Source of the DNA: an uncultured Candidatus Saccharibacteria bacterium
Lineage (GTDB): Bacteria > Patescibacteriota > Minisyncoccia > Minisyncoccales > MHMH01
Assembly (NCBI GenBank): GCA_964393465.1
Contig: CAYMTT010000001.1
Coordinates: 1 to 62,246 of the forward strand
Direction of reading: 5' to 3'
DNA length: 62,246 bases
Shown here: positions 30,120 to 51,631 of the stretch, piece by piece
Layout of the letters: the number at the start of each line of letters is the position of its first letter
Numbering within the stretch: the stretch's first letter is position 1
Program-made: the position numbers and the translations under genes
The notes under the pieces: model-generated
Database searches by the model: none
What the model saw: only the letters and a program-made list of their open reading frames with translations
Told to the model about the DNA's origin: nothing

Positions 30120-30569
30120 ATGGCGGTGCTTTCAAACAACAGAAAAGCGTATTTCAACTATGAAATCCTGGAAACTTTCGAGGCCGGAATGGTTTTGGAA
30201 GGCCACGAGGTAAAATCGGTGAAACTGGGCAGAATGAACCTGGCCGGCTCCCATATAGTGCTCAAAGACGAGGAAGCCTATTTGCTCAACGCCCAAATTC
30301 CCCCTTACCAGCCCAAAAACACGCCCGAAGGCTACGATCCTTCCAGGCTGAGAAAACTCCTATTGAAAAAAGACGAACTGAACTATTTAATCGGCAAATC
30401 CCAGCAGAAGACCTTGACTTTAGTGCCCCTTAAGGTGTATACTAAGAAAGGCAAAATCAAGCTGGAATTCGGAGTCGGCAGAGGAAGGAAGAAAGTGAAC
30501 AAAAAGGAACTGTTAAAGAAAAGAGCGACCGACAGGGAAATAGAAAGGGAAATGAAATCAAGGGGATGA
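30120..30569 (+). CDS. smpB: SsrA-binding protein SmpB
   Basis: 149 aa. NRKAYFNYEILETFEAGMVLEGHEVKS with a basic C-terminal tail. Confidence 0.95.
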   Translation: MAVLSNNRKAYFNYEILETFEAGMVLEGHEVKSVKLGRMNLAGSHIVLKDEEAYLLNAQIPPYQPKNTPEGYDPSRLRKLLLKKDELNYLIGKSQQKTLTLVPLKVYTKKGKIKLEFGVGRGRKKVNKKELLKKRATDREIEREMKSRG

Positions 30570-30923
30570 CACAGCTTAGATGGAAGATCTTTTTTCAAAA
30601 CGCGCAAGCCGAGTTTGCCAGAATCTCGCTAAACTTCCGGCACAGAATAAGTGCCAACTTATTCAAACAACCAGCTTTAGCTCACGCACACGCGTAAGGC
30701 ATAAGCCATCTTCTTTATGGACTCTCGATAAATAAAGAAGGTGTCATAAACTCGAGATAGGCAGGCCCTTTTGATTCGGGAGAGCCGCCGAAAAAACAAC
30801 CGAATCGAAACCTCGAGGCTCTTCGTCCGGTTCCAGGCCTCAGGTTTTTCTTCCAACCGGGCTAAGCTTGTAGAAGCTTTTTGGAAAAGCTTCCAGACGT
30901 GGGGGCAGTGCCCACCATCTCCA
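30562..30923 (+). ncRNA. ssrA: tmRNA (SsrA), standard one-piece form, CCA not encoded
   Basis: 5' GGGGAUG (30562-30568) pairs with 3' CAUCUCC (30916-30922), giving a G3:U70 wobble, the AlaRS identity element. Discriminator A is at 30923. The T-arm is GUGGG-GGCAGUG-CCCAC, directly abutting the acceptor strand. UGGAAG (30581-) pairs with CUUCCA (30890-) as a P2-like helix. The putative tag ORF AUAAGU-GCC AAC UUA UUC AAA CAA CCA GCU UUA GCU CAC GCA CAC GCG UAA (30653-30697) encodes ANLFKQPALAHAHA. The gene lies immediately after smpB. Confidence 0.85.
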
Positions 30924-30941
30924 CAGAACCATTTTTAAAAA

Positions 30942-33537: not shown

Positions 33538-33867
33538 TTAAAAGAGCATTTTATCATTCTTAATCAAAACGCCTTCTTTTTCAAGTAGTTGGATTTTCTT
33601 TTTTTGTCCAAGCCTATAACCGCCAACTTTCCCGTTCGATCTGACAACGCGATGGCAGGGAATATTTCTAAGGTCTGGATTTTTATTCAAGGCATTGCCC
33701 ACCGCTCTGGCTGCTTTTGGCGAACCCGCCAATTTAGCCACTTGCCTGTAGGTCAACACTTTTCCTCGAGGAATTTTCCTGACCGCTCTATATACTTTTT
33801 CCTGAAAGAAACTTATCCCGAATTTATTGAAGGAAGTTATTGGCTTTCTTAAGTATTTCTTTGGCAT
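33538..33867 (-). CDS. Methylated-DNA--protein-cysteine methyltransferase domain protein (Ogt/MGMT C-terminal domain only)
   Basis: 109 aa. VYRAVRKIPRGKVLTYRQVA helix-turn-helix and the active-site motif IPCHRVV. Confidence 0.85.
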   Translation of the reverse strand: MPKKYLRKPITSFNKFGISFFQEKVYRAVRKIPRGKVLTYRQVAKLAGSPKAARAVGNALNKNPDLRNIPCHRVVRSNGKVGGYRLGQKKKIQLLEKEGVLIKNDKMLF

Positions 33868-34231
33868 TTTTGTAGGTCAACTGTTTTGACGCCTCTTTAT
33901 AAGCGAGCCACTTGTATGCTTTGTGCTCCCAGGATATTTTCACTTTTTTCGTTGTGGTTTGGGCCAAGAAAAAAACGACGGTCTTCGAAATCTTTTCTTT
34001 TTCCCTTTTGTAAAAATATCTTATCGTTTCCTTAAACCCCGGAATGAAATCGATATTACGAATACCGGTTTCTTCGAAAACTTCCCTGCGGGCGGCCCCC
34101 TCCTTGCTTTCCCCTTTTTCTATCTTGCCTTTGGAAAAATCCCAATGGCCGGAACCGTAATGCAAAAGCAGGTAAAAGTTTTTACCTTTTTCTCTTCTGA
34201 AAATTACAGCCCCGGCCGATCTTTCCGTCAT
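33824..34231 (-). CDS. NUDIX hydrolase
   Basis: Nudix box GKIEKGESKEGAARREVFEETGI. I placed the start at ATG 34231 (MTERSAGAVIF), which forms an ATGA overlap with the PolX stop. The track start at 34306 lies inside PolX. Confidence 0.85.
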   Translation of the reverse strand: MTERSAGAVIFRREKGKNFYLLLHYGSGHWDFSKGKIEKGESKEGAARREVFEETGIRNIDFIPGFKETIRYFYKREKEKISKTVVFFLAQTTTKKVKISWEHKAYKWLAYKEASKQLTYKNAKEILKKANNFLQ

Positions 34232-35952
34232 GCCGATTTTTTGCCGAAAAATTTCAAAATCTCTTTCCAGTCCATGGTATTGATTATATCTTTTTTCTCG
34301 GCCCATCCTCTCCTGGCCTGGGCTATTCCCAGCTCCATATACCTTAATTGGTCGTTCTGGTGGGAATCGGTGCTGACTACCATTTTGACCCCGGCTTCCT
34401 TGGCTCTTTTTATATTCTGGTCGTTCAAATCCAGCCTTTCGGGATGCGAATTTATTTCCAAAACCGTTCCGAATTCCCTAGCTGCTCTCAAAATTTTGTC
34501 GAGATCGCACCGGTATCCGTCCCTTCTTTTTAAAATTCTGCCGGTTGGATGGGAAATTATCCTTATATAAGGGTTTTTCATGGCCTTGATTATCCTTTCT
34601 GTCATTTCCTTCTCTGGCATGCCGAAATTCGAATGGATTCCGGCGATGGCGTAATCCAGTTCGGATAAGGCCTTGTCGTTAATGTCTATGGAGCCGTCGT
34701 TGAGAATGTTAGTTTCCGCCCCTTTTAAAATCCTGAAATCTTTCCGCTGAGAATTAAGTGCGTCTATTTTTTTGTTGCGCCTGGCAAGTTCTTTTTCGTC
34801 CAAGCCGTGCTCTATTTTCAAAAATTTAGTATGGTCGGAGATTCCCGCGTATCGATATCCCATCTTTCGGGCAGCCTCCGCTATTTCTCCGATGGAATTT
34901 TGCCCTCCATCCCAGCTAGAATGAATGTGCAAATCGCCCAGAATATCTCGGTATTCCACCAAATCGGGCAGCTTCCCTTTTAAGGCCGCTTCCACTTCTC
35001 CGCGGTTTTCCCTCATTTCCGGTGCAATCCAATTCATACCCAAGGCATTGTAAACTCCTTTTTCGGTTTTACCTGCCAAAACCTTTTTACCTTTGAAAAG
35101 CCCGTATTCGGAAAGCTTCATTCCTTTTCCCATAGCGATTTTCCTCAAAGCTATATTGTGTTCTTTGGATCCCGTGAAATACAAAAGGGCCGAGCCGTAG
35201 CTTTTTTCGGAGACCACCCTCAAGTCGATATCGAACCCCTCCTCGACCCTGACCGAAGATTTGGTGGAGCCCTTTCCCCAAACTTTCGTCACCTCTTTCT
35301 GGGAAACGAAAAACTCAACCACTTTTTCCGGCTTTTTGGAAAAAACCAAAATGTCCACGTCTCCGATGGTTTCTTTTTTTCTTCTAAAAGATCCGGCAAC
35401 GTCAATTTTTTCAACTTCGTCCAAAGACTCTAATTTTTTCCGCATTTCCCTGGCCCTAAAGACGATTTCCCCCAATAGAAACCTTCCCCTGCTTTTTTTC
35501 AAAAACTCTATTCCTTCGATAATGTTTTCTTCGGTTTTTTCCCCGAATCCCTCCAAAGAAGCTATTTTGTGCTTTCTGGCGGCCTCTTCCAAACTTTTCA
35601 AATTTCTCACTCCGAGCTCCCGATAAAGGATCTTGGCTTTTTTGGGGCCCATGCCTTCGATTCCTGTAATTTCTTCCAGTCTTAAGGGCATTCTTTTTTT
35701 AAACCGCTCATGGTGTTTTATCTTTCCGGTTTTCAGATACTCTTCTATTTTTTCAGCGATGCTTTTTCCCACTCCGGGAATTTCCTCCAAGGCCTTGATG
35801 CCGCCTTCTTTATAAAATTCTTCTACGTCTTTTTCCATGCTTTCCAAAGATAAAGCGGCCTTGCGGTAGGCGTAAGGCCTGAACTGAGCTTCTCCCATTT
35901 GAAGGTAATCTGCCAATTCGTAAAAGACTTTGGCTATTTCCCGGTTCTTCAT
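34228..35952 (-). CDS. DNA polymerase X family protein with C-terminal PHP domain
   Basis: 574 aa. Pol-beta-like N-terminus (NREIAKVFYELADYL, HhH GVGKSIAEKI, GSFRRKKETIGDVDIL) and PHP motifs (GDLHIHSSWDGG, ISDH). Confidence 0.9.
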   Translation of the reverse strand: MKNREIAKVFYELADYLQMGEAQFRPYAYRKAALSLESMEKDVEEFYKEGGIKALEEIPGVGKSIAEKIEEYLKTGKIKHHERFKKRMPLRLEEITGIEGMGPKKAKILYRELGVRNLKSLEEAARKHKIASLEGFGEKTEENIIEGIEFLKKSRGRFLLGEIVFRAREMRKKLESLDEVEKIDVAGSFRRKKETIGDVDILVFSKKPEKVVEFFVSQKEVTKVWGKGSTKSSVRVEEGFDIDLRVVSEKSYGSALLYFTGSKEHNIALRKIAMGKGMKLSEYGLFKGKKVLAGKTEKGVYNALGMNWIAPEMRENRGEVEAALKGKLPDLVEYRDILGDLHIHSSWDGGQNSIGEIAEAARKMGYRYAGISDHTKFLKIEHGLDEKELARRNKKIDALNSQRKDFRILKGAETNILNDGSIDINDKALSELDYAIAGIHSNFGMPEKEMTERIIKAMKNPYIRIISHPTGRILKRRDGYRCDLDKILRAAREFGTVLEINSHPERLDLNDQNIKRAKEAGVKMVVSTDSHQNDQLRYMELGIAQARRGWAEKKDIINTMDWKEILKFFGKKSA

Positions 35953-38335: not shown

Positions 38336-38364
38336 TTGACAAGCGACAAAGATTGTTATACAAT
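38336..38364 (+). promoter_or_regulatory. Near-consensus sigma70 promoter (TTGACA-17 nt-TACAAT)
   Basis: -35 TTGACA at 38336-38341, an exact 17-nt spacer, and -10 TACAAT at 38359-38364. AGGAGG (38373-38378) follows, then TTG at 38386. Confidence 0.6.
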
Positions 38365-38385: not shown

Positions 38386-38838
38386 TTGAAAAAGGAAATT
38401 TTAATATTCGCTGTAATTCTGCTGATTTACGGGATATGCATAGTAACGCTGTCTCTGATAACGGTAGAATTATTCAACAAGCAGGTTGCCCCCGCCATCG
38501 AGGAAAAAAATCAAGCCAATCAAGCCATAGAAGATTATTTCCTTAATAACAGGGCAGGGCAACCTGCCTTTTTATTTGCACATTTTCATCAAAGTTCTGG
38601 CATTCTTGACCGCGCGCCCCTCGAGGTCGTTGTTGAAATAAACGAAAACCTCCAATCCCCTTTTTTGCCATTTCTTCACCTTCCCCGACAGATTCCGGAG
38701 CTCTTTTTCAGAGTAGCTAGAAGCGAACTTTTTTCGGGGGCCGTGCATGCGGACATAAACCGATTTCGAAGTGACTTTGTCTTGTCTGGGATAATCCGGC
38801 GAATCGGATATCACCCAGGCGGCTCCATGTTTTTTTAA
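38386..38838 (+). CDS. Small membrane protein ORF with uncertain 3' end
   Basis: A TTG start lies 7 nt after AGGAGG and downstream of a consensus promoter. The N-terminus LKKEILIFAVILLIYGICIVTLSLITVELF is a clear TM helix. In the assembled frame there is no stop before 38838, so the ORF would overlap the convergent DUF72 gene by 267 nt; see findings. Confidence 0.3.
   Translation: MKKEILIFAVILLIYGICIVTLSLITVELFNKQVAPAIEEKNQANQAIEDYFLNNRAGQPAFLFAHFHQSSGILDRAPLEVVVEINENLQSPFLPFLHLPRQIPELFFRVARSELFSGAVHADINRFRSDFVLSGIIRRIGYHPGGSMFF
38553..38573. terminator. Hairpin GGCAGG-gcaa-CCTGCC plus T-tract between the small plus-strand ORF and the DUF72 gene
   Basis: The stem at 38553-38568 is followed by TTTTT on the plus strand. 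On the minus strand it lies immediately after the DUF72 stop codon (38572-38574). Confidence 0.5.
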
Positions 38839-39309
38839 AATACGATAAACCTTTTCTTGGCACCAAGAACGGTGGCGAAACTCGAAAGCGCACCCGGACT
38901 TGTCTTTTTTAACTGTTTTTAAGAAATCTTCCAGTCTTTTTAAATTTTCCTCGGTGGCTTTAAAACCGGACGGAAACTGGAACAATACCGGCCCAAGTTT
39001 TTCTTCGAGCCGGGAAGCTCTTTTGAAAAAAGTTTTCCAGGGATTTTTTACTCCCTTCAGCTTTTTGACGTGAGTGATATACCTGCTGGCCTTTACGGAA
39101 AAAATAAAATCTCCGGGGGTTTCCGATCTCCATTTTTTGAAAGTTTCCGCTTTAGGCAAGCGGTAAAAAGAATAATTGATCTCGGCGGTTAAAAAGCGCT
39201 CCGAAAAATATCGGAGTTTTTTTGAAGAAGGAAGATCTTCGGGATAAAAAACCTTTTGCCAGTGGGCATACGACCATCCCGAAGTCCCTATATGAAGCTT
39301 TTTCTTCAT
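38572..39309 (-). CDS. DUF72 (YecE/UPF0759) family protein
   Basis: 245 aa. HIGTSGWSYAHWQKVFYP N-terminus and FEFRHRSW motif. Confidence 0.85.
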   Translation of the reverse strand: MKKKLHIGTSGWSYAHWQKVFYPEDLPSSKKLRYFSERFLTAEINYSFYRLPKAETFKKWRSETPGDFIFSVKASRYITHVKKLKGVKNPWKTFFKRASRLEEKLGPVLFQFPSGFKATEENLKRLEDFLKTVKKDKSGCAFEFRHRSWCQEKVYRILKKHGAAWVISDSPDYPRQDKVTSKSVYVRMHGPRKKFASSYSEKELRNLSGKVKKWQKRGLEVFVYFNNDLEGRAVKNARTLMKMCK

Positions 39310-39500
39310 TATCCCTGCTCTTCAATGAATTTGCCAAAAGACCTGTCGAAAGTCTTTTCGGCCTCCTTTGAAAAACAACAGGCCGGCAACTCCCCTTTTT
39401 CCAAATGATGCCTTATGCATTCGCAGCAAAGGCCCTTTCTCGGGCAGCCGGGATAAGTGCAGGGGCAATCTTTTAAGTTTTTTTCTTTTTGGCACTCCAT
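39309..39500 (-). CDS. Small cysteine-rich protein (DUF6485-like)
   Basis: 63 aa with 9 Cys: MECQKEKNLKDCPCTYPGCPRKGLCCECIRHHLEKGELPACCF... It overlaps the DUF72 start by 1 nt. Confidence 0.6.
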   Translation of the reverse strand: MECQKEKNLKDCPCTYPGCPRKGLCCECIRHHLEKGELPACCFSKEAEKTFDRSFGKFIEEQG

Positions 39501-39504
39501 ATTT

Positions 39505-40023
39505 TTATTTTATCACCTCGACCTCGAAAGTGTAAAATTCGGCCGGGTTTTTCTTCCAGTAATCGGGAGGCAAGCCGGCCTTGAACATTAAATTCTCCAA
39601 AAAAGTTTCCAAATCCCAGCCATTTTCCAAAGCCACTTGGGGCAGAAAAAGCGCCGCCCTTCCTTGGGCTTTGACCATCAACCCCTGGACTCCCAAGCGC
39701 AGTTCATCTACAGATTTTAAAGGCTTCAAAGGGCCTAAAACGGAAACTTCGTATTCCAGAAAAGGCAGCTCTTCTTCGGAAACGGGAGGGAATCTCGGAT
39801 CTTGGAAGGCGGCGGCAACAGCCAAAAGGGGAACCGCCTTGTAAAGGGGAGATTCGCAATCGATCTGCCCGATACAGCCGCGCAAGAGTCCTTGTTTTTT
39901 TAAAGTGACGAAAACTCCCCGCTTTTCTTTTAATTTTTCCGGGGTTGGCTCAAATTCGGGAATTTCTCTTTCCCTGGCGAAAGTTTCAACCGAAGTTTTA
40001 GCGATGGAAAGCAACCGATCCAT
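39505..40023 (-). CDS. AMMECR1 domain protein (AmmeMemoRadiSam system protein A-like)
   Basis: 172 aa. RGVFVTLKKQGLLRGCIGQ and DPRFPPV motifs. Confidence 0.88.
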   Translation of the reverse strand: MDRLLSIAKTSVETFAREREIPEFEPTPEKLKEKRGVFVTLKKQGLLRGCIGQIDCESPLYKAVPLLAVAAAFQDPRFPPVSEEELPFLEYEVSVLGPLKPLKSVDELRLGVQGLMVKAQGRAALFLPQVALENGWDLETFLENLMFKAGLPPDYWKKNPAEFYTFEVEVIK

Positions 40024-40795
40024 AACCTACCACCCGGTTTTTGTCTCCGGCTTCGACGTCACCGGAATTGGCGTATTTCAAAAGATGAGCTTGTCCTTTC
40101 AAAGACTCAGAAACCTTCATTAAGGTTTTGAGAGAATCTTTTCCGCAGGCTTCCAGAGATGTATAATTTCCGCCGAGCACGGCTTCCAGGGTCCGCTTGT
40201 CTTTTTTTACGGCTTCCCCGTAAGGCAAATAATGGGAAAGGTCTGAAGAGGCCACAATCAAAGTTTTTTTCCGGCCGATATTTCCCAGCAAAGCTTGGGC
40301 CAAACTTTCCCAGTCTTCATCTTCGGAACCGAAAACGATCGGCAGAATTTTGAATTTTTTCAGCGTTTTTTGCAAAAAAGGCAGCTGGACTTCCAAAGAA
40401 TGCTCGAAAATATGGGCCGAATCCCGGGAATAGAATCTTTTAGAAAAAGAGGTAATTTTCTCTACCAGCTGCTCGTCGACTTCCACCTTTCCCAAAGGGG
40501 TCTCCCATTTGCCAGAAGACCAAAAAGACACCCCCTCAAAACGCTCGTAATGGGAATCTCCCATGAGAATGACTGTGTCAAAATCTCTCCCCGCCAGAGC
40601 TTTGTATCCGCAGGCGGCCACCTGGCCGGAGAAAACGTATCCGGCGTGAGGCGAAAGCAAACCGAAAATCTCCCCTTTTATTTCGGGAGCCTCGGCCCGC
40701 GACAAAAGAAAGGAAACGTTTTTTTCCAATTCTTTTTTCTCTTCGGGATAAAATTGTCCGGCTACAGCCGGCGGTCTGATCATATGTTTCAACAA
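39998..40795 (-). CDS. MEMO1-family protein (AmmeMemoRadiSam system protein B-like)
   Basis: 265 aa. RPPAVAGQFYP N-terminus, SPHAGYVFSG, GDSHYE, and SSDLSHY. The alternative start at ATG 40783 would remove the 7-nt overlap. Confidence 0.88.
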   Translation of the reverse strand: MLKHMIRPPAVAGQFYPEEKKELEKNVSFLLSRAEAPEIKGEIFGLLSPHAGYVFSGQVAACGYKALAGRDFDTVILMGDSHYERFEGVSFWSSGKWETPLGKVEVDEQLVEKITSFSKRFYSRDSAHIFEHSLEVQLPFLQKTLKKFKILPIVFGSEDEDWESLAQALLGNIGRKKTLIVASSDLSHYLPYGEAVKKDKRTLEAVLGGNYTSLEACGKDSLKTLMKVSESLKGQAHLLKYANSGDVEAGDKNRVVGYGSVAFHR

Positions 40796-41151
40796 GTTAA
40801 ATGAAAGAGTCCTATTATTTTCTCCGGCCTGCCTTCCTCTTCTTCTGATTCTTCCTTGCGGATGTTGAAGGTTTTTACGGCCGCTTCCGTCCTGTCTATT
40901 ATAAGGCGGATTCCTTTTTCGGCCACTAACTCTTTGGCTTTGCCCGAAACTTTCATCAAGCCCGATTCTCCCGTGCCAATGACAATGGTTTCAGGATTTT
41001 CTCCGACCGCCCTTTCGAGATCTTCAACCTCGACCGAATGGGAATTTTCCCGCCACCACTTCAAAACCTGGCCGGTCCAACGCACTTCCGAATCCTGCTT
41101 GTAAGTTTTCCCGCCGACCACTATTAATCCGAAGTTGTACTGATCTATCAT
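40789..41151 (-). CDS. Mth938-like (DUF498/AAMDC/NDUFAF3-fold) domain protein
   Basis: 120 aa. FGLIVVGGKTYKQDSEV...ETIVIGTGESGLMKVSGKAKELVAEKGIRLII matches my recollection of the Mth938 domain pattern. Confidence 0.65.
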   Translation of the reverse strand: MIDQYNFGLIVVGGKTYKQDSEVRWTGQVLKWWRENSHSVEVEDLERAVGENPETIVIGTGESGLMKVSGKAKELVAEKGIRLIIDRTEAAVKTFNIRKEESEEEEGRPEKIIGLFHLTC

Positions 41152-41156
41152 AAAGT

Positions 41157-42416
41157 TTAAAAAAGGGTGTTTTGTTTTGAAGCCCTCCTGCTTTCCCCTT
41201 TGGAAAATATCCTAATTTTCCCGTAGACTCCATCGTAGCCCGGCTCTACAAAAACCCTGCCTTCCCTGATTCTCATTATCCCTTCGGCTATTTCCGGTAA
41301 AGATGCAGATTCCAAATCCTGTCGGGAAGCTTCCAGCAGAATCTTGAATTCACTGCCAAGGCCGCCTATAAGGTTTTCGTATTCTTCTTTGACTTTTTTG
41401 GAAGCTGTCCCCAAGCCGAGGCTTTCTGCAATTATCTCTTCCAAAGGCACCAGGCTTTTGAAGGGAATGGCGTCTTCCGGTTTGAAGCCTTCCGGCCTGT
41501 CGGCCAAACTTTCTATCCTGCTCATTACCCCGACGGTCAAAGGTCTTCCGCAGGTCGGACAAATGTTGTTGTATTTTTTCGACTCTTGCGGGGAAAGCAC
41601 GATTTGGCAGTTTCTGTGGCCGTCGTAATGGTACTTCCCCTCTTGGGGGAAAAATTCCACAGTGTACAGAAAATTCTGAGGGTCTTTTGATTTTATGGCT
41701 GCCCCTATGGAAGAATAGCTCAAAAAGGGCAAACTGAAAACGTTGGCCTCCCTGCCTATCCTGCTCGGTGAATGGGAATCGCTGTTGGAGATCAAAGCCA
41801 TCCTGTCCAAAGAAGAAAGCCTCCAGTTCATAGCAGGATCAGACGACAATCCCGTTTCCAAAGCGTAGATGTATTTTGAATAATCCTCGAAGCATTCCTC
41901 CAAAGAATCGAAGCCGGATTTGGATCCGAAAATGCCGAACCAAGGAGTCCAGGCGTGAGCCGGAATCACCAGGCAGTCTTCGGAAACCGAAAAAACGATT
42001 TTCGCCAGCTCTTTGGCATCCAAGCCCAGAATCGGGCGGCCGTCGGCTTTCAAATTTCCTATCCATCCCAGCCGGGCGTTGATATTTTCTACCTCTTTGA
42101 AAGAAGGGGCGAAAATTAAAACGTGTATCTTTCTGACCTTGTTGTTTTTGGAATAAATGCAGCTGATTTCCGCGGTCAAGATGAAACGGACGGGAGTATC
42201 TTTTTCTTTCAGTTTAAAAAGACCGGGCTCTGCCGGTTCCAGTTTTTCTTTCAGATCGTTGAACCATTCGGGATGAGTGAAATCTCCTGTAGCCAAAACT
42301 TTTATCCCTTTTATTCCGGCCCACTTATCCAGGCTTTCCAGGTCCATATCCCTGCTGGTGGCCCTGGAATACTTGCTGTGGATGTGGAAATCGGCTACGA
42401 ATTGCATATATTCCAT
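41157..42416 (-). CDS. Endonuclease Q (PHP-fold nuclease with zinc ribbon)
   Basis: 419 aa, collinear with archaeal EndoQ. ADFHIHSKYSRATS, ATGDFTHPEW, IPAHAWTPWF, LETGLSSDPAMNW, NSDSHSP.RIGREANVF, EGKYHYDGHRNC, CPTCG, and PGYDGVYGKIRIF. Confidence 0.85.
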   Translation of the reverse strand: MEYMQFVADFHIHSKYSRATSRDMDLESLDKWAGIKGIKVLATGDFTHPEWFNDLKEKLEPAEPGLFKLKEKDTPVRFILTAEISCIYSKNNKVRKIHVLIFAPSFKEVENINARLGWIGNLKADGRPILGLDAKELAKIVFSVSEDCLVIPAHAWTPWFGIFGSKSGFDSLEECFEDYSKYIYALETGLSSDPAMNWRLSSLDRMALISNSDSHSPSRIGREANVFSLPFLSYSSIGAAIKSKDPQNFLYTVEFFPQEGKYHYDGHRNCQIVLSPQESKKYNNICPTCGRPLTVGVMSRIESLADRPEGFKPEDAIPFKSLVPLEEIIAESLGLGTASKKVKEEYENLIGGLGSEFKILLEASRQDLESASLPEIAEGIMRIREGRVFVEPGYDGVYGKIRIFSKGESRRASKQNTLF

Positions 42417-47215: not shown

Positions 47216-47903
47216 ATTTCTCGGCAACAAAATAAAGATTTCCGTGTTTTTTGCCCGGGCTTTTCAAAAGCCCGGTTTCTTTCACTTTTAATCCAGCTTT
47301 TTCGGCCAGTTTCCGCAGTTCTTTTTCGTCAAAAAGATGAACATAGCGCAAGCAGTCTCTGTTCCAAGGAACCAAAACGTCGCCCGAACCCATTTTCGAT
47401 TTCCCTAAAAACTTCAGAAAAAGAAACTTGGCTCTCAAAATCATTTCTTTCAGAGGAGGGAGCTTCCAAACGGTTACAATCAAAAAGCCTTCCGGGCGCA
47501 GAACCCTGCAAGCCTCCTTTAAAAATTTCAAACGCATATCAAAAGAAGAAATATGGTGGAAAACCCCGATGGAAATTATTTTATCGAAGGAATTTTCGGC
47601 AAAAGGCAGATCCAGGGCGTCGCCGACTTTAAAATCGGCTTCCGGATACTTTTCTCTGGCTATTTCGACGAGCTTTTCGGAAGCATCCAGGCCGCAGTAG
47701 GAAACGTTCTTTTTTTCAATCAAATCGTAAAGCCTTCCGTTGCCGCATCCCAAATCCAGAACCCTGTCTTTGGGGGAAACGTATTTTTCCAAAGACCTCA
47801 ACTCTCCCCATATTTTTTCTCTGCTTCTTGAAAAGTCTCCGGCAATGGAGTTATAATCTTTAATGGTCTTGTTCAACAGATACTGAGCGTATTTTTTATC
47901 CAT
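47214..47903 (-). CDS. Class I SAM-dependent methyltransferase, Trm9/ALKBH8-like
   Basis: 229 aa from ATG 47903 (MDKKYAQ...). The track start at 48014 would run through the elp3 start. Motif series: YNSIAGDFSRSR, VLDLGCGNG, GDALDLPF, SFDKIISIGVFHHI, RVLRPEGFLIVTVW, GDVLVPW, and RYVHLFDEKEL. Confidence 0.7.
   Translation of the reverse strand: MDKKYAQYLLNKTIKDYNSIAGDFSRSREKIWGELRSLEKYVSPKDRVLDLGCGNGRLYDLIEKKNVSYCGLDASEKLVEIAREKYPEADFKVGDALDLPFAENSFDKIISIGVFHHISSFDMRLKFLKEACRVLRPEGFLIVTVWKLPPLKEMILRAKFLFLKFLGKSKMGSGDVLVPWNRDCLRYVHLFDEKELRKLAEKAGLKVKETGLLKSPGKKHGNLYFVAEK
47828..47857 (+). promoter_or_regulatory. Candidate elp3 promoter embedded in the methyltransferase coding region (TTGAAA-18 nt-TATAAT)
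   Basis: -35 TTGAAA at 47828-47833 and -10 TATAAT at 47852-47857, 45 nt upstream of the elp3 ATG. Confidence 0.4.
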
Positions 47904-49416
47904 GAAAGTTTCAGAAGAAATAATTAAAGAATTGGCAAAAAGTCCGCAGGGGACCGATTTGTTGCGCCTTAAAAGGAAAATGGCAAAAAAGTTCAACGTC
48001 TCCTGCCCCAGCAACGTAGAACTTCTTAAAACCTACCATAAAATGGCGGCCCGAAAAAGGGTCGAACCTTCAGAATATATTGAAAACCTTTTGAAAACCA
48101 GGCCGGTCAGATCGCTTTCGGGAATCGTCAACGTATCGGTTTTAGTGAAGCCTTACCCCTGCCCGGGGAAATGCGCCTATTGCCCGCAGGAAAAAAACGC
48201 ACCCAAAAGCTATCTTAAAGGAGAACCTGCCGTGATGAGAGCGATTTTGAACGAATACGACCCTTACAAACAAGTAAAAACCAGATTGAATTCACTGAAA
48301 ATGACGGGGCATCCTACCGACAAGATAATGCTCAGGATAGTCGGAGGGACGTGGTCTTTTTATCCGGAAAAATACAAAAGCGGATTCATTAAAAAATGCT
48401 TTGAAGCCTGCAACGGCAGAAAAGAGGAAAGCTTGGAATCTGCATTTAGGAAAAACGAAAAAGCCGAACATCGCCTGGTGGGAATTTCCATAGAGACCAG
48501 GCCCGATTTCGTGACAAAAAAGGAAATAGAGAATCTGAGAAAACTGGGGGTAACCCAAGTGGAGCTGGGGGTTCAAAGCATATACGAGGACGTTTTGAAA
48601 CTGAACAAAAGAGGGCACGGCGTAAAAGAAACCAAAAAAGCCACCGAAGCCCTGAAAGACGCAGGGTTCAAAATCTGTTATCAAATGATGCCCAATCTCC
48701 CCGGCTCAACCTTGAAACGCGACGAAAAAATGTTCAAAGAGCTTTTTTCCAATCCCGATTTCAAACCCGATTTTCTAAAAATATATCCCTGCGCCGTCTT
48801 GAAAAACACCCTTCTTTACAAATGGTGGAAACGGGGAAAATACAGGCCTTACACCAAAAAACAACTGATAAGCTTGATTAAAAAAATAAAAAGGGAGATA
48901 CCCTGGTACGTGAGAATCCAAAGGATAACCAGGGATATTCCCAGCGGGGAGATAGTGGCCGGCCCCGCCAAAATATCCAATTTAAGGCAGCTGGTTTCGG
49001 GCCAATGCAAATGCATAAGATGCCGGGAAGTGAGAGGAAACTACGATCCCAAAGAAAAAATATTCCTGTTCCGCCAAGACTACGAAGCTTCAAAAGGCAA
49101 AGAAGTTTTTTTGAGCTACGAAAATAAAGGGCGCGACAAGCTTTTCAGCCTTCTACGGCTGCGCCTGACTTCCGACAATAAAACTTTCATCAGGCACCTT
49201 CACACTTACGGAAAGCTTTATCCTTTCGGACCGAAAACTCAAATTTCCCCCCAGCATAAAGGCCTGGGCAAAAAACTGGTAAGAGAGGCAGAAAAAATAT
49301 CCCAAAAAGAATTCGGGGCAAAAAAAATAGCCGTGATTTCCGGCATAGGAGTAAGGGGTTATTACCGAAAGCTGGGCTACAAGCTGAACAATACCTACAT
49401 GGTAAAAAACTTTTGA
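47902..49416 (+). CDS. elp3: Elp3-family radical SAM/GNAT enzyme (tRNA U34 carboxymethyluridine synthase homologue)
   Basis: 504 aa. Radical SAM cluster motif CPGKCAYCP, TIM-barrel region (ISIETRPD, VELGVQS), and a C-terminal GNAT (QHKGLGKKLVREAEKI...GIGVRGYYRKLGY). Confidence 0.88.
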   Translation: MKVSEEIIKELAKSPQGTDLLRLKRKMAKKFNVSCPSNVELLKTYHKMAARKRVEPSEYIENLLKTRPVRSLSGIVNVSVLVKPYPCPGKCAYCPQEKNAPKSYLKGEPAVMRAILNEYDPYKQVKTRLNSLKMTGHPTDKIMLRIVGGTWSFYPEKYKSGFIKKCFEACNGRKEESLESAFRKNEKAEHRLVGISIETRPDFVTKKEIENLRKLGVTQVELGVQSIYEDVLKLNKRGHGVKETKKATEALKDAGFKICYQMMPNLPGSTLKRDEKMFKELFSNPDFKPDFLKIYPCAVLKNTLLYKWWKRGKYRPYTKKQLISLIKKIKREIPWYVRIQRITRDIPSGEIVAGPAKISNLRQLVSGQCKCIRCREVRGNYDPKEKIFLFRQDYEASKGKEVFLSYENKGRDKLFSLLRLRLTSDNKTFIRHLHTYGKLYPFGPKTQISPQHKGLGKKLVREAEKISQKEFGAKKIAVISGIGVRGYYRKLGYKLNNTYMVKNF

Positions 49417-49851: not shown

Positions 49852-50418
49852 TCACCGCGTTTTTTTCTTTGTCAAACCTAGAGTTTTACTTAAATTCTTA
49901 AAATCCTTTTCCATTCTTTTTTTAAATTTTAAAAAGCGCAGGCCGGCGGCCGGATGATAAGTGATGAAGTAAGCCCGTCCGTTTTTTTTGAAAACTTTGC
50001 CTCGTTTCTTCCAGAAGTTAACGCCCAAAACCGTATCGCAAGCCACTCTTCCAAGAAGAACGACGGTTTCCGGATTTATCAATTCCATTTGTTTTTTCCA
50101 CCAAAAAGAACAAGCTTTCAATTCCCCGCTTTTGGGCTTTCTGTTCAAAGGGGGTCTGTGTTTTATAACCGAAGTTATGAAAACTTTCTTCCTCTCTATG
50201 CCGCTTTTTTCAAACAAAAGATCCAGAAGCCTGCCGGCTCGGCCCACGAAAGGCCTGCCATTCAAATCCTCCTGCCTGCCGGGAGCTTCTCCCACGAACA
50301 TTATTTCCGCGCCGGAGGGACCTTCTCCGGGAACAGGATTCCGCGTCCCTTTCCATAAAGGACAAAGCCGGCAAGAGGAAATCTGCCGGTCGATTTTTCT
50401 CATTTCTTTTTTTTCCAT
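49852..50418 (-). CDS. Uracil-DNA glycosylase, family 4
   Basis: 188 aa. CRLCPL and GEAPGRQEDLNGRPFVGRAGRLL motifs, plus HPAAGLR near the C-terminus. Confidence 0.88.
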   Translation of the reverse strand: MEKKEMRKIDRQISSCRLCPLWKGTRNPVPGEGPSGAEIMFVGEAPGRQEDLNGRPFVGRAGRLLDLLFEKSGIERKKVFITSVIKHRPPLNRKPKSGELKACSFWWKKQMELINPETVVLLGRVACDTVLGVNFWKKRGKVFKKNGRAYFITYHPAAGLRFLKFKKRMEKDFKNLSKTLGLTKKKTR

Positions 50419-50509: not shown

Positions 50510-51631
50510 TCATAGTCTCTTTTTAAGCCTGGAAAAAGCGGCTTCTTTTTCTCTAAGGGAAATTCCGCTTTTTTTTATCCCTCTGGCTATAATCTGCAGG
50601 GTTTTATCGTAGGTCTCCCTGTCCACCGGGAAAGGAGTGCTGTCTTTTCCTCCGTGGGCGAACGTATAGCGGGCCGGATCCTCATAGGAAGGTTTGGCCC
50701 CGTAGATTATTTCTGCCACCAAAGAAAGAGCCCTAACGGTCCTGGGGCCCACTCCCTTTAAAGCCAAAAAGCTTTCGAAGTCTTCCGGTTTTCTTTCGGA
50801 AGCCGAAAATATGGTCTTTTCCAGCCTTTTCAGGTCGAACTTTTCCTGAACCACTGGATGCCAATGGAATTCCCTGTCGTAAAGTTGCATCATAGTCAGA
50901 TTCTTGGATTGCCGAGTCTGGATAAGGTTCAGGTCTTTCAGAAAGGTCTTCGGCTCTTCTTTGACCATGGCTCCGCTTATCTCTCTGTTTTTTTCGCTTT
51001 CTTGGGCTACCAGATTCAAAGGATTGCCTTTCAAAGAGGAAATGATTCCCGAATGAGGCTCCCGGATGAAATCGGTTTTTTCTTTCTGCCGGGATAAGCC
51101 CGATGAAATCCAATGGTAGCGGCGGGCAGTCTGATTGCCGATATTCATTCCCTGTTGAACAACAGCCCAATCTCCCGATTTTGTGAAAAGAAAATTATGC
51201 TGGTAAATCTGGTATTTGTCCTGAATCAGGGAAGAATCGACCTTAGCTGCCATTTTTGAAGCGTAAATAAGATCCGGAGCGAAAGAAAAGCGCCTGGATA
51301 TGCCGTAAGCTTCTATTTCGGAGGGAGTTTCCCTGGAAGCCTTCTTTCCTCCGCAAACATAGATCCCCAACCGGTCCTGAATGTCAAAAAGACCGGCTTT
51401 TAAGGCTCCCAAAGTGGTAACCGTCAGCCCCGAAGAATTCCAATCGAATCCAAGAACGCAGCCGAAAGACTGGAACCAAACGGGATCGGAAATCCTTCTT
51501 AAGAATTCTTCCGGTCCGAACTCCTCTACCACGGCCGCAGTTATCCCTTTCGAAAGATTTTTCATCCTTTCGAAAAGCCAGCGGGGGCATTTTCCGTAAT
51601 CCAAAGGAACTGTTGCTATACCGACTCTCAT
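50510..51631 (-). CDS. DUF763 domain protein
   Basis: 373 aa. N-terminal ATVPLDYGKCPRWLFERM..., and a helix-hairpin-helix-like LKGVGPRTVRALSLVAE near aa 290. Confidence 0.75.
   Translation of the reverse strand: MRVGIATVPLDYGKCPRWLFERMKNLSKGITAAVVEEFGPEEFLRRISDPVWFQSFGCVLGFDWNSSGLTVTTLGALKAGLFDIQDRLGIYVCGGKKASRETPSEIEAYGISRRFSFAPDLIYASKMAAKVDSSLIQDKYQIYQHNFLFTKSGDWAVVQQGMNIGNQTARRYHWISSGLSRQKEKTDFIREPHSGIISSLKGNPLNLVAQESEKNREISGAMVKEEPKTFLKDLNLIQTRQSKNLTMMQLYDREFHWHPVVQEKFDLKRLEKTIFSASERKPEDFESFLALKGVGPRTVRALSLVAEIIYGAKPSYEDPARYTFAHGGKDSTPFPVDRETYDKTLQIIARGIKKSGISLREKEAAFSRLKKRL

Follow-up and report, generated by a model that had tools for sequence, protein, structure and literature searches.

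Six contiguous genes around a Memo-AMMECR1 pair in a Patescibacteria-like contig probably reflect inherited synteny and compact-genome packing

The contig CAYMTT010000001.1 (assembly GCA_964393465.1, uncultured Candidatus Saccharibacteria bacterium) was analysed over its positions 1 to 62,246, and this whole 62-kb stretch is referred to as the window. On its minus strand six consecutive genes encode, in the direction of transcription, a homologue of endonuclease Q (EndoQ), a DUF498/Mth938-family protein, Memo, AMMECR1, a small Cys-rich DUF6485 protein and a DUF72 TIM-barrel protein. Memo and AMMECR1 are proteins B and A of the AmmeMemoRadiSam system, whose third component is a radical SAM enzyme of the TIGR04337 type. 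A first-pass annotation of the DNA had described the six genes as one translationally coupled operon in which the third component is missing, with a possible functional link of the pair to its neighbours. We examined this proposal by gene spacing, by the gene order of close relatives and by a broad survey of AMMECR1 loci.

An open reading frame (ORF) listing confirmed the six minus-strand ORFs at the coordinates of Table 1, with junctions of +5, -7, -26, +4 and -1 nt, and the family names given in the first pass were borne out by Pfam, NCBIfam and PDB sequence searches. The Pfam matches of DUF498, Memo, AMMECR1, DUF6485 and DUF72 all exceeded the Pfam cut-offs; the NCBIfam cut-offs are 26 bits for TIGR04336, 99 bits for TIGR04335 and 326.6 bits for the equivalog TIGR00375. 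In the PDB searches Memo matched human MEMO1 (E=3e-12), AMMECR1 matched PH0010 (1vaj, E=7e-28), and DUF498 matched 2ab1 (human C11orf67/AAMDC), 2cyj (PH1505) and 1ihn (MTH938). The EndoQ homologue had no Pfam match in the library used, and its relatives carry the label PF27218. It aligned to 5zb8 over its full length, with 397 residues aligned (8-404 of the query against 5-383), and scored 180.3 bits with TIGR00375, below the equivalog cut-off, as a divergent bacterial member. AMMECR1 overlaps the 3' end of Memo by 26 nt, and the start of DUF72 overlaps the stop of DUF6485 by 1 nt. The start codon of Memo is TTG, and an in-frame ATG 12 nt downstream (40783) is an alternative start.

Table 1. 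Coordinates of the features in the window and in the loci used for comparison (locus handles precede the coordinates)
Feature	Location	Strand	Evidence or remark
EndoQ homologue (PHP-domain lesion-specific DNA endonuclease), 419 aa	41157..42416	-	PfuEndoQ 5zb8/7k30, E=9e-58
DUF498/Mth938-family protein, 120 aa	40789..41151	-	PF04430, 69.7 bits
Memo / AmmeMemoRadiSam system protein B, 265 aa	39998..40795	-	PF01875, 197.5 bits; TIGR04336, 256.5 bits
AMMECR1 / AmmeMemoRadiSam system protein A, 172 aa	39505..40023	-	PF01871, 182.3 bits; TIGR04335, 178.7 bits
DUF6485 small Cys-rich protein, 63 aa, 9 Cys	39309..39500	-	PF20095, 35.5 bits
DUF72 TIM-barrel protein, 245 aa	38572..39309	-	PF01904, 252.4 bits; TM1631 1vpq, E=4e-33
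Hairpin GGCAGG-TTGC-CCTGCC, 6 bp, 5 of them GC	38553..38568	-	-12.4 kcal/mol for 40-nt context
Elp3 (radical SAM/GNAT tRNA U34 modification enzyme), full-length	47902..49416	+	TIGR01211, 548 bits
Transfer-messenger RNA (tmRNA)	30562..30926	+	Rfam RF00023, 87.6 bits; no tmRNA call from ARAGORN
MGMT	33538..33867		DNA-repair gene
PolX with PHP domain	34228..35952		DNA-repair gene
Uracil-DNA glycosylase (UDG)-superfamily gene	49852..50418		DNA-repair gene
rtcA	L001:6190..7206; L002:6178..7206; L003:6091..7158; L171:2932..3954; L177:1552..2580		Close relatives
Uncalled DUF6485 ORF	L171:5311..5499; L173:1741..1929; L172:2631..2762		Close relatives
LigT/2H-phosphoesterase, head-to-head with radical SAM gene	L178:8124..8681; L179:9283..9960		Parcubacteria contigs
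ORF of about 350 aa	L020:10458..11507; L022:10482..11525; L024:10458..11513; L103:10458..11513		Survey loci

The spacing of the six genes was compared with that of the whole window. The coding fraction across the 62 kb was 0.94 in a simple gene map, the minus strand carried 55 of the 73 ORFs, and 31 of the 47 same-strand neighbour pairs (66%) were separated by 10 nt or less, with a median gap of 4 nt. The five junctions, all on the minus strand, were no tighter than this background, and spacing thus did not set the six genes apart as a conserved operon. Upstream of EndoQ the same-strand run goes on for eight more genes, namely an amino-acid permease gene ending 33 nt upstream of EndoQ and, before it, bPH_2, two small ORFs, MgtC, an EF-Tu-D2-like ORF, a SLOG protein and a CDF transporter; the gaps across these eight are 33, 5, 4, 1, 5, -1, 17 and 21 nt. 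Downstream, beyond a gap of 276 nt, the array restarts with DUF1858, LPG-synthase TM, YjbQ, MFS, PolX and MGMT. By spacing logic alone the operon would hold at least 14 genes of plainly unrelated function. Because the run extends into unrelated transporter genes and the whole window is equally packed, the six-gene unit is neither delimited nor special.

The 276-nt intergenic gap opens with a GC-rich hairpin that sits 3 nt past the DUF72 stop codon. The terminal hairpin of the first-pass annotation is thus present as a 6-bp structure, but the tail on the minus strand, CTGTTATTAA, makes a poor U-tract, and the T-run is better on the plus strand. The transcription unit may have its 3' boundary at this hairpin. 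Read on the plus strand (38551-38570) the same hairpin has a good T-tail, TTTATTTG. The gap also contains a plus-strand sigma-70-like promoter, TTGACA-17-TACAAT at 38336-38364 (11/12 match), and an AGGAGG lies 7 nt before a plus-strand TTG at 38386 that starts an ORF encoding a hydrophobic helix. Its first stop is at 38838, antisense to DUF72, and no homologue of it was found in any fetched locus.

Close relatives of the locus were available from five lineages with an AMMECR1 57-65% identical to that of the window (L001, L002, L003 with L004, L171-L173, and L177). Their contigs were read for gene order and then re-searched by tblastn. The order in L001 and L003 was EndoQ-DUF498-rtcA-Memo-AMMECR1-DUF72 with rtcA, the gene of RNA 3'-phosphate cyclase, on the opposite strand; L002 had the same order with DUF2905 and an NTPase inserted beside rtcA, and DUF6485 was found in none of the three. 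L171-L173 carried IspG, IspH, IspD, IspE and rtcA, all on the opposite strand, followed by Memo-AMMECR1-DUF6485-DUF72, with EndoQ and DUF498 absent. L177 read DUF498, a hydrolase, rtcA on the minus strand, Memo and AMMECR1 followed by unrelated genes, with DUF72 absent. In all five lineages rtcA was head-to-head with Memo at a distance of about 25-70 nt, and no counterpart of rtcA was found in the window. Thus the uninterrupted six-gene run is a derived state that results from the loss of rtcA. Furthermore, the opposite-strand rtcA between DUF498 and Memo in L001-L003 means that EndoQ-DUF498 and Memo-AMMECR1(-DUF72) cannot share a transcript there. In sum, the six genes were not contiguous and co-directional in the relatives: rtcA lay directly upstream of Memo in all five lineages and between DUF498 and Memo in L001-L003, DUF6485 was present in one of the five, DUF72 was absent from L177 and EndoQ-DUF498 was absent from L171. 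Of the coupled unit described in the first pass, plausible co-transcription stands; its delimitation does not, as the run continues upstream and rtcA splits it in relatives.

Parts of the arrangement are shared. L001-L003 carry an EndoQ gene in the corresponding place, with 71-77% identity to that of the window and followed by DUF498. The 26-nt overlap of Memo and AMMECR1 recurred in L001, L002 and L171-L173 and measured 35 nt in L003; DUF72 followed AMMECR1 in L001-L004 and, after DUF6485, in L171. However, about 20 flanking genes of unrelated function were collinear with the relatives too, upstream SLOG, EF-Tu-D2, MgtC, the two small ORFs and the permease, and downstream DUF1858, LPG-synthase TM, YjbQ, MFS, PolX, NUDIX and MGMT. 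As the unrelated flanks are equally collinear, the conserved feature is regional synteny and not a module.

Two further loci bear on this point. L006 has the same regional frame in the order DUF498, Na/Ca exchanger, rtcA (minus strand), DUF6485, IspH, IspG, YjbQ, MFS and PolX, and Memo, AMMECR1, DUF72 and EndoQ are all absent from the locus. The more distant L066 (AMMECR1 48% and EndoQ 63% identical to those of the window) carries EndoQ 4 kb upstream, then GT2, two TPR genes, a Memo::AMMECR1 fusion and OTCase. At L066:12440-12562, 2 kb downstream of the fusion, a stretch of 41 aa matches the N-terminus of DUF72 at 46% identity (E=2e-5). The contig retains the EndoQ...PolX frame, and the stretch has the look of a decayed DUF72 gene. 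Judged by the gene content of L177 and L066, DUF72 is dispensable beside an intact Memo-AMMECR1 pair.

The broad survey comprised 160 AMMECR1 loci of many phyla, 41-55% identical, among the matches listed in two collection scans of genome and metagenome contigs. The AALFLPQVALE of the window falls outside the genome-scan pattern G[VL][FL]LPQVAxE, and the closest relatives are not among the surveyed loci. The queries for a phmmer search of all ORFs in these loci were the six proteins of the window and a TIGR04337 seed verified at 389.5 bits. Memo was fused or adjacent to AMMECR1 in 116 of the 160 loci. A TIGR04337-type radical SAM gene was within the locus in 25 of 160, and in 17 of the 64 well-flanked loci, i.e. 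those whose flanks extend for 5 kb or more (up to 10 kb) in either direction. There was no DUF498 and, the L066 remnant aside, no DUF72 in any of the 160 loci; EndoQ occurred once (L066) and DUF6485 five times, each time 3-8 kb away within a lineage-specific block of housekeeping genes and never adjacent. Three of these five loci share the block ABC ATPase-DUF6485-LPG_synthase_C-MutL-NIF3-Memo-AMMECR1-glycosyltransferase, and a meaningful link of DUF6485 to AMMECR1 was rejected since the three represent one lineage-specific block and adjacency was never seen.

As a seed-independent check, the 149 genes directly flanking AMMECR1/Memo in 75 loci were compared with Pfam; this gave cysteinyl-tRNA synthetase (CysRS, 9), PALP (7) and D-Tyr-tRNA deacylase (5) as the commonest, and neither DUF72, DUF498, EndoQ nor DUF6485 was among the 25 most frequent families. 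Neighbour genes differed lineage by lineage. Taken together, the 160 loci and the 149-neighbour scan showed no six-gene association in distant genomes beyond synteny, and the functional link of EndoQ, Mth938 and DUF72 to AMMECR1/Memo that had been suggested initially gained no support from counts of 1, 0 and 0. Only Memo-AMMECR1 is supported across phyla as a functional pair.

Several other neighbourhoods recurred in the survey. In 15 of the 160 loci CysRS was no more than 3 kb from AMMECR1/Memo (L013, L021, L024, L028, L030, L035, L045, L048, L050, L059, L103, L118, L126, L130 and L140), and those with organism labels were of the Thermodesulfobacteriota type (Smithella, Syntrophaceae, Desulfarculaceae); it is also 2 kb from the system in the contig L174 (L174:10601-11977), which belongs to the candidate phyla radiation (CPR). 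Dus and a SpoU methylase were also among the immediate neighbours. The block MutL-NIF3(DUF34)-Memo-AMMECR1 recurred in L029, L104, L108, L113, L115, L119 and L128, and in L113, L115, L119 and L128 DUF6485 precedes the block by a few genes; the block is probably the synteny of one lineage (L029 is labelled Spirochaetota). In several Desulfomonilaceae/Desulfarculaceae-type loci an ORF of about 350 aa overlaps the AMMECR1 3' end by about 25-55 nt. It may belong to the PALP family; it lacks a CxxxCxxC motif and is not the TIGR04337 enzyme.

The search for the radical SAM partner in the window itself was negative. Neither a scan of the ORFs for CxxxCxxC nor tblastn with two TIGR04337-type seeds detected a TIGR04337-type gene in the 62 kb, in agreement with the first-pass annotation. 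The sole radical SAM (CxxxCxxC) ORF was Elp3, 5.5 kb upstream. It was rejected as the AmmeMemoRadiSam partner as it is a bona fide Elp3, encoded on the opposite strand and not TIGR04337-like. Elp3 is found mainly in archaea and eukaryotes. An exact-sequence look-up of the window AMMECR1 found no identical copy in public assemblies.

The next relative outside the clade (L174-L176) has the order UvrB-UvrA-UvrC-Memo-AMMECR1 followed by the radical SAM gene on the minus strand. Its AMMECR1 and Memo (L174) are 54% and 64% identical to those of the window, and the radical SAM protein encoded there shares 44% identity with the verified seed. L174 is labelled 'Pacearchaeota', yet it encodes UvrABC and a DnaX-type clamp-loader subunit and is thus bacterial. 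A search with its radical SAM protein returned 7,983 matches, of which the best 119 other clusters were 67-76% identical; the few named entries among these 119 were labelled Parcubacteria, Nealsonbacteria or 'Pacearchaeota'. In L178 and L179 a minus-strand LigT gene is followed by the radical SAM gene and a LigB-type protein and, further on, by AMMECR1-HHH_8-EF-P. By these sequence matches a TIGR04337-type partner is common in the surrounding phylum. Because it is also non-adjacent in 47 of the 64 well-flanked loci, its absence from 62 kb is uninformative. Thus the missing third gene, held to be noteworthy in the first pass, loses its weight: the partner is within the locus in a minority of cases, and sister Patescibacteria lineages have it.

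For DUF6485, 240 homologues were detected. The best 120 of the 240 were 67-82% identical, and the named ones among these 120 were almost all Patescibacteria/Paceibacterota. Residues C3, C12, C14, C19, C25, C26, C28, C41 and H32 were invariant and the ninth Cys was variable. The AlphaFold (AF2) model showed a small helical fold with a predicted local distance difference test (pLDDT) score of 91.2. Foldseek found no structural match of this fold in the PDB, the PDB sequence search gave marginal zinc-finger matches (E ~0.006), and we found no mention of DUF6485 in the literature. Across L005-L010 its neighbours were unrelated genes, with contexts that differed from one another, and besides the window it occupied the slot in Memo-AMMECR1-DUF72 only in L171-L173. 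There the ORF, of 63 aa and 71% identical to that of the window, lies inside a 238-nt gap and is absent from public gene calls; small Cys-rich genes of this family are thus under-called, and surveys from called genes miss them. Precursor peptides of radical SAM enzymes usually have a variable core sequence. DUF6485 as such a modified precursor was rejected on account of its conserved sequence, confident fold and unrelated contexts and the lack of a maturase nearby. The same conservation, fold and contexts speak against the earlier suggestion of a substrate or dedicated chaperone of Memo/AMMECR1. Judging from these features, DUF6485 is probably a structured metal-binding protein with a function of its own.

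Publications that contain the term 'AmmeMemoRadiSam' merely list the system in annotation tables. Extended Memo contexts were reportedly described by Burroughs et al. in 2019 (JBC). The AMMECR1 of the window has intact LRGCIG and DPRF motifs, with R48, G49, C50, G52, D75, R77 and F78 invariant in an alignment of 16 sequences. These correspond to the motifs by which Balaji & Aravind (2007) defined the family, the RGChG cysteine and DxRa, and AMMECR1 was predicted there to act on RNA bases (PMC2034487). Memo-AMMECR1 has been placed by prediction in RNA/nucleotide base modification via the conserved AMMECR1 cysteine (PMC2034487; PMC4075521). The products of rtcA, present in the five relatives, and of the LigT/2H-phosphoesterase genes in L178 and L179 both act on RNA 2',3'-cyclic phosphate ends. 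The rtcA and LigT neighbours are a recurrent, weak hint of an RNA link for the AmmeMemoRadiSam system.

According to the literature EndoQ comes mostly from Thermococcales and methanogens and is rare among bacteria (PMC4357722), and DUF72 is structurally close to UV-damage endonuclease (UVDE) and enriched near polB2 (PMC11791011). Within 17 kb of the window the DNA-repair genes MGMT, PolX, EndoQ and the UDG-superfamily gene are found, and DUF72, possibly UVDE-like, belongs to the same stretch. The most likely reading of EndoQ and DUF72 is that of independent DNA-repair nucleases; PolX, MGMT and a UDG-family gene are encoded in the same region.

We favor the view, with a probability of about 0.7, that the six genes reflect compact-genome packing on inherited synteny, made contiguous through the loss of rtcA, and do not form a new functional system. 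The six ORFs would be ordinary members of known families, in the streamlined genome of a Patescibacteria-like (CPR) bacterium, and part of a longer co-directional array. Their order, like that of about 20 unrelated flanking genes, would be inherited and common to the close relatives, and the loss of the opposite-strand rtcA would have joined EndoQ-DUF498 to Memo-AMMECR1-(DUF6485)-DUF72, any co-transcription of the six being a by-product of packing. Memo-AMMECR1 would work with a TIGR04337-type enzyme encoded elsewhere in the genome, as in most genomes, and DUF498 and DUF6485 would act as independent small proteins. The first-pass annotation had named beforehand an adjacency unique to this contig as the mark of random packing in a compact genome, and the uninterrupted run was unique to this contig among everything sampled. 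On the other hand, several points weigh against our view. In four of the five relatives the ORFs of Memo-AMMECR1-DUF72 still overlap or abut in an unbroken row, in proteins that have diverged to about 45-65% identity; one relative lineage (L171-L173) has DUF6485 in the identical slot, and three relatives have retained the EndoQ-DUF498 adjacency. Selection for a Memo-AMMECR1-(DUF6485)-DUF72 sub-cluster is therefore conceivable. All relatives belong to one clade, in which inheritance and selection are statistically inseparable, and their sample is small with five lineages. Finally, we infer the trans-encoded radical SAM partner from a window that covers only part of the genome.

Selection of this kind would be expected if Memo-AMMECR1-(DUF6485)-DUF72 were a clade-specific module that has lost or uncoupled its radical SAM enzyme and acts on damaged or modified nucleic acid, an explanation that we consider improbable. 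It would account for the overlapping or abutting AMMECR1 and DUF72 genes in the window (via DUF6485), L001, L002, L003/L004 and L171, for the common DUF6485 slot of the window and L171-L173, and for the nucleic-acid genes that recur beside the system, i.e. rtcA five times, UvrBAC in L174, LigT and the PolX-like HHH_8 in L178/L179, and EndoQ and PolX here; the UVDE-like character of DUF72 and its proximity to polB2 (PMC11791011) and the RNA-base prediction for AMMECR1 (PMC2034487) would fit as well. Yet L177 keeps rtcA-Memo-AMMECR1 without DUF72, L066 has its fusion with only the possible 41-aa DUF72 remnant 2 kb off, and DUF72 was near none of the 160 other AMMECR1 loci. DUF6485 is missing from the slot in four of five relatives and has unrelated contexts elsewhere. 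Moreover, the whole region is collinear, so that its conservation needs no functional cause, and the loss of the radical SAM gene in the clade is only assumed. The concrete version, in which the pair is coupled to a UVDE-like DUF72 and in some genomes to the 8-Cys/1-His DUF6485, the radical SAM enzyme is lost and the role is in damaged or modified nucleic acid, appears quite improbable to us. Far less credible still is the proposal that all six genes are one translationally coupled operon and a radical-SAM-less AmmeMemoRadiSam variant tied to the repair of deaminated DNA. The contiguity of the genes with a hairpin after the last one speaks for it, as does the presence of EndoQ, DUF498, Memo, AMMECR1 and DUF72 in the same 5-kb region in L001-L003. 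But in these very loci rtcA, plus two genes in L002, splits DUF498 from Memo into two transcription units, L171 has methylerythritol phosphate (MEP)-pathway genes where EndoQ-DUF498 would be, and L006 combines DUF498...rtcA-DUF6485-IspH-IspG without Memo, AMMECR1, DUF72 and EndoQ. Gaps of this size are usual throughout the genome, the permease gene 33 nt upstream leaves the unit without a 5' boundary, and the broad survey was negative.

A different question is whether the pair needs a radical SAM enzyme at all. Memo-AMMECR1 could work without any, as in eukaryotes, the gene having been lost in the lineage and the neighbours being irrelevant; we judge this unlikely but by no means far-fetched. 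The 62-kb window and about 70 kb of sequence from close relatives yielded no TIGR04337 homologue, and background knowledge adds two points in its favor: eukaryotes to our knowledge have AMMECR1 and MEMO1 but not this radical SAM enzyme, and CPR genomes are reduced. However, the window proteins score best on the bacterial models TIGR04335 and TIGR04336, and L174, whose Memo is as similar to that of the window (64%) as the clade's own, has an adjacent partner. Among Parcubacteria the partner is both abundant and strongly conserved, it is non-adjacent in most well-flanked loci (47 of 64), and the window represents about 5-10% of a typical CPR genome (assumed ~1 Mb).

If packing on inherited synteny is the explanation, the locus is a cautionary case: overlap between co-directional ORFs is the default in CPR-type genomes and carries little functional information, and 'missing' system components are usually just encoded elsewhere. 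Two by-products are of modest value. One is the bacterial (CPR) branch of EndoQ among other repair genes. The other is that the AmmeMemoRadiSam genes in CPR contigs were repeatedly near genes of RNA-end processing or DNA repair, which weakly fits the nucleic-acid-base prediction for AMMECR1/Memo. A clade-specific coupling of Memo, AMMECR1 and DUF72, if true, would be a new handle on three families of unassigned biochemistry.

The tmRNA of the window and SmpB/IF3 in a relative identify the genome as bacterial. The named DUF6485 homologues at about 80% identity come from Paceibacterota/Patescibacteria. ARAGORN called a tRNA-Leu(AAG) at 51456-51539 on the minus strand, inside the DUF763 ORF 50510-51631 (E=7e-120); Rfam gave no tRNA there at the gathering score, and the call is probably a false positive.

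In comparison with known systems, the window resembles AmmeMemoRadiSam loci in that its A and B proteins are both above the system cut-offs and in that their genes, adjacent or fused in most surveyed loci, overlap here. The lack of a radical SAM gene in 62 kb is shared with 47 of 64 well-flanked loci and is not distinctive, whereas the flanking DUF498, DUF6485, DUF72 and EndoQ are clade-specific. The DUF498 protein is a member of the Mth938 family (1ihn, 2cyj, 2ab1) by its PF04430 score above cut-off and its PDB sequence matches, and its adjacency to EndoQ is seen only in the clade of the window. Compared with PfuEndoQ (5zb8/7k30) the window homologue keeps the PHP HxH motif (DFHIHS) and the C-terminal CPTCG zinc-finger half-site, but the first zinc-finger Cys is apparently a His (HRNC versus CSRC); the homologue is bacterial (CPR) and below the TIGR00375 equivalog cut-off. 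The DUF72 protein is like TM1631 (1vpq) by its full-length Pfam match and E=4e-33, with the UVDE and polB2 links coming from the literature only (PMC11791011). Nothing was found that sets the window apart from the uber-operon-like polycistronic arrays of streamlined genomes. Like these it strings together genes of unrelated function in one direction over a long stretch, 0-10 nt apart or slightly overlapping, and its collinearity with relatives is worn by insertions and deletions of single genes, here of rtcA, DUF6485, DUF72 and transporters.

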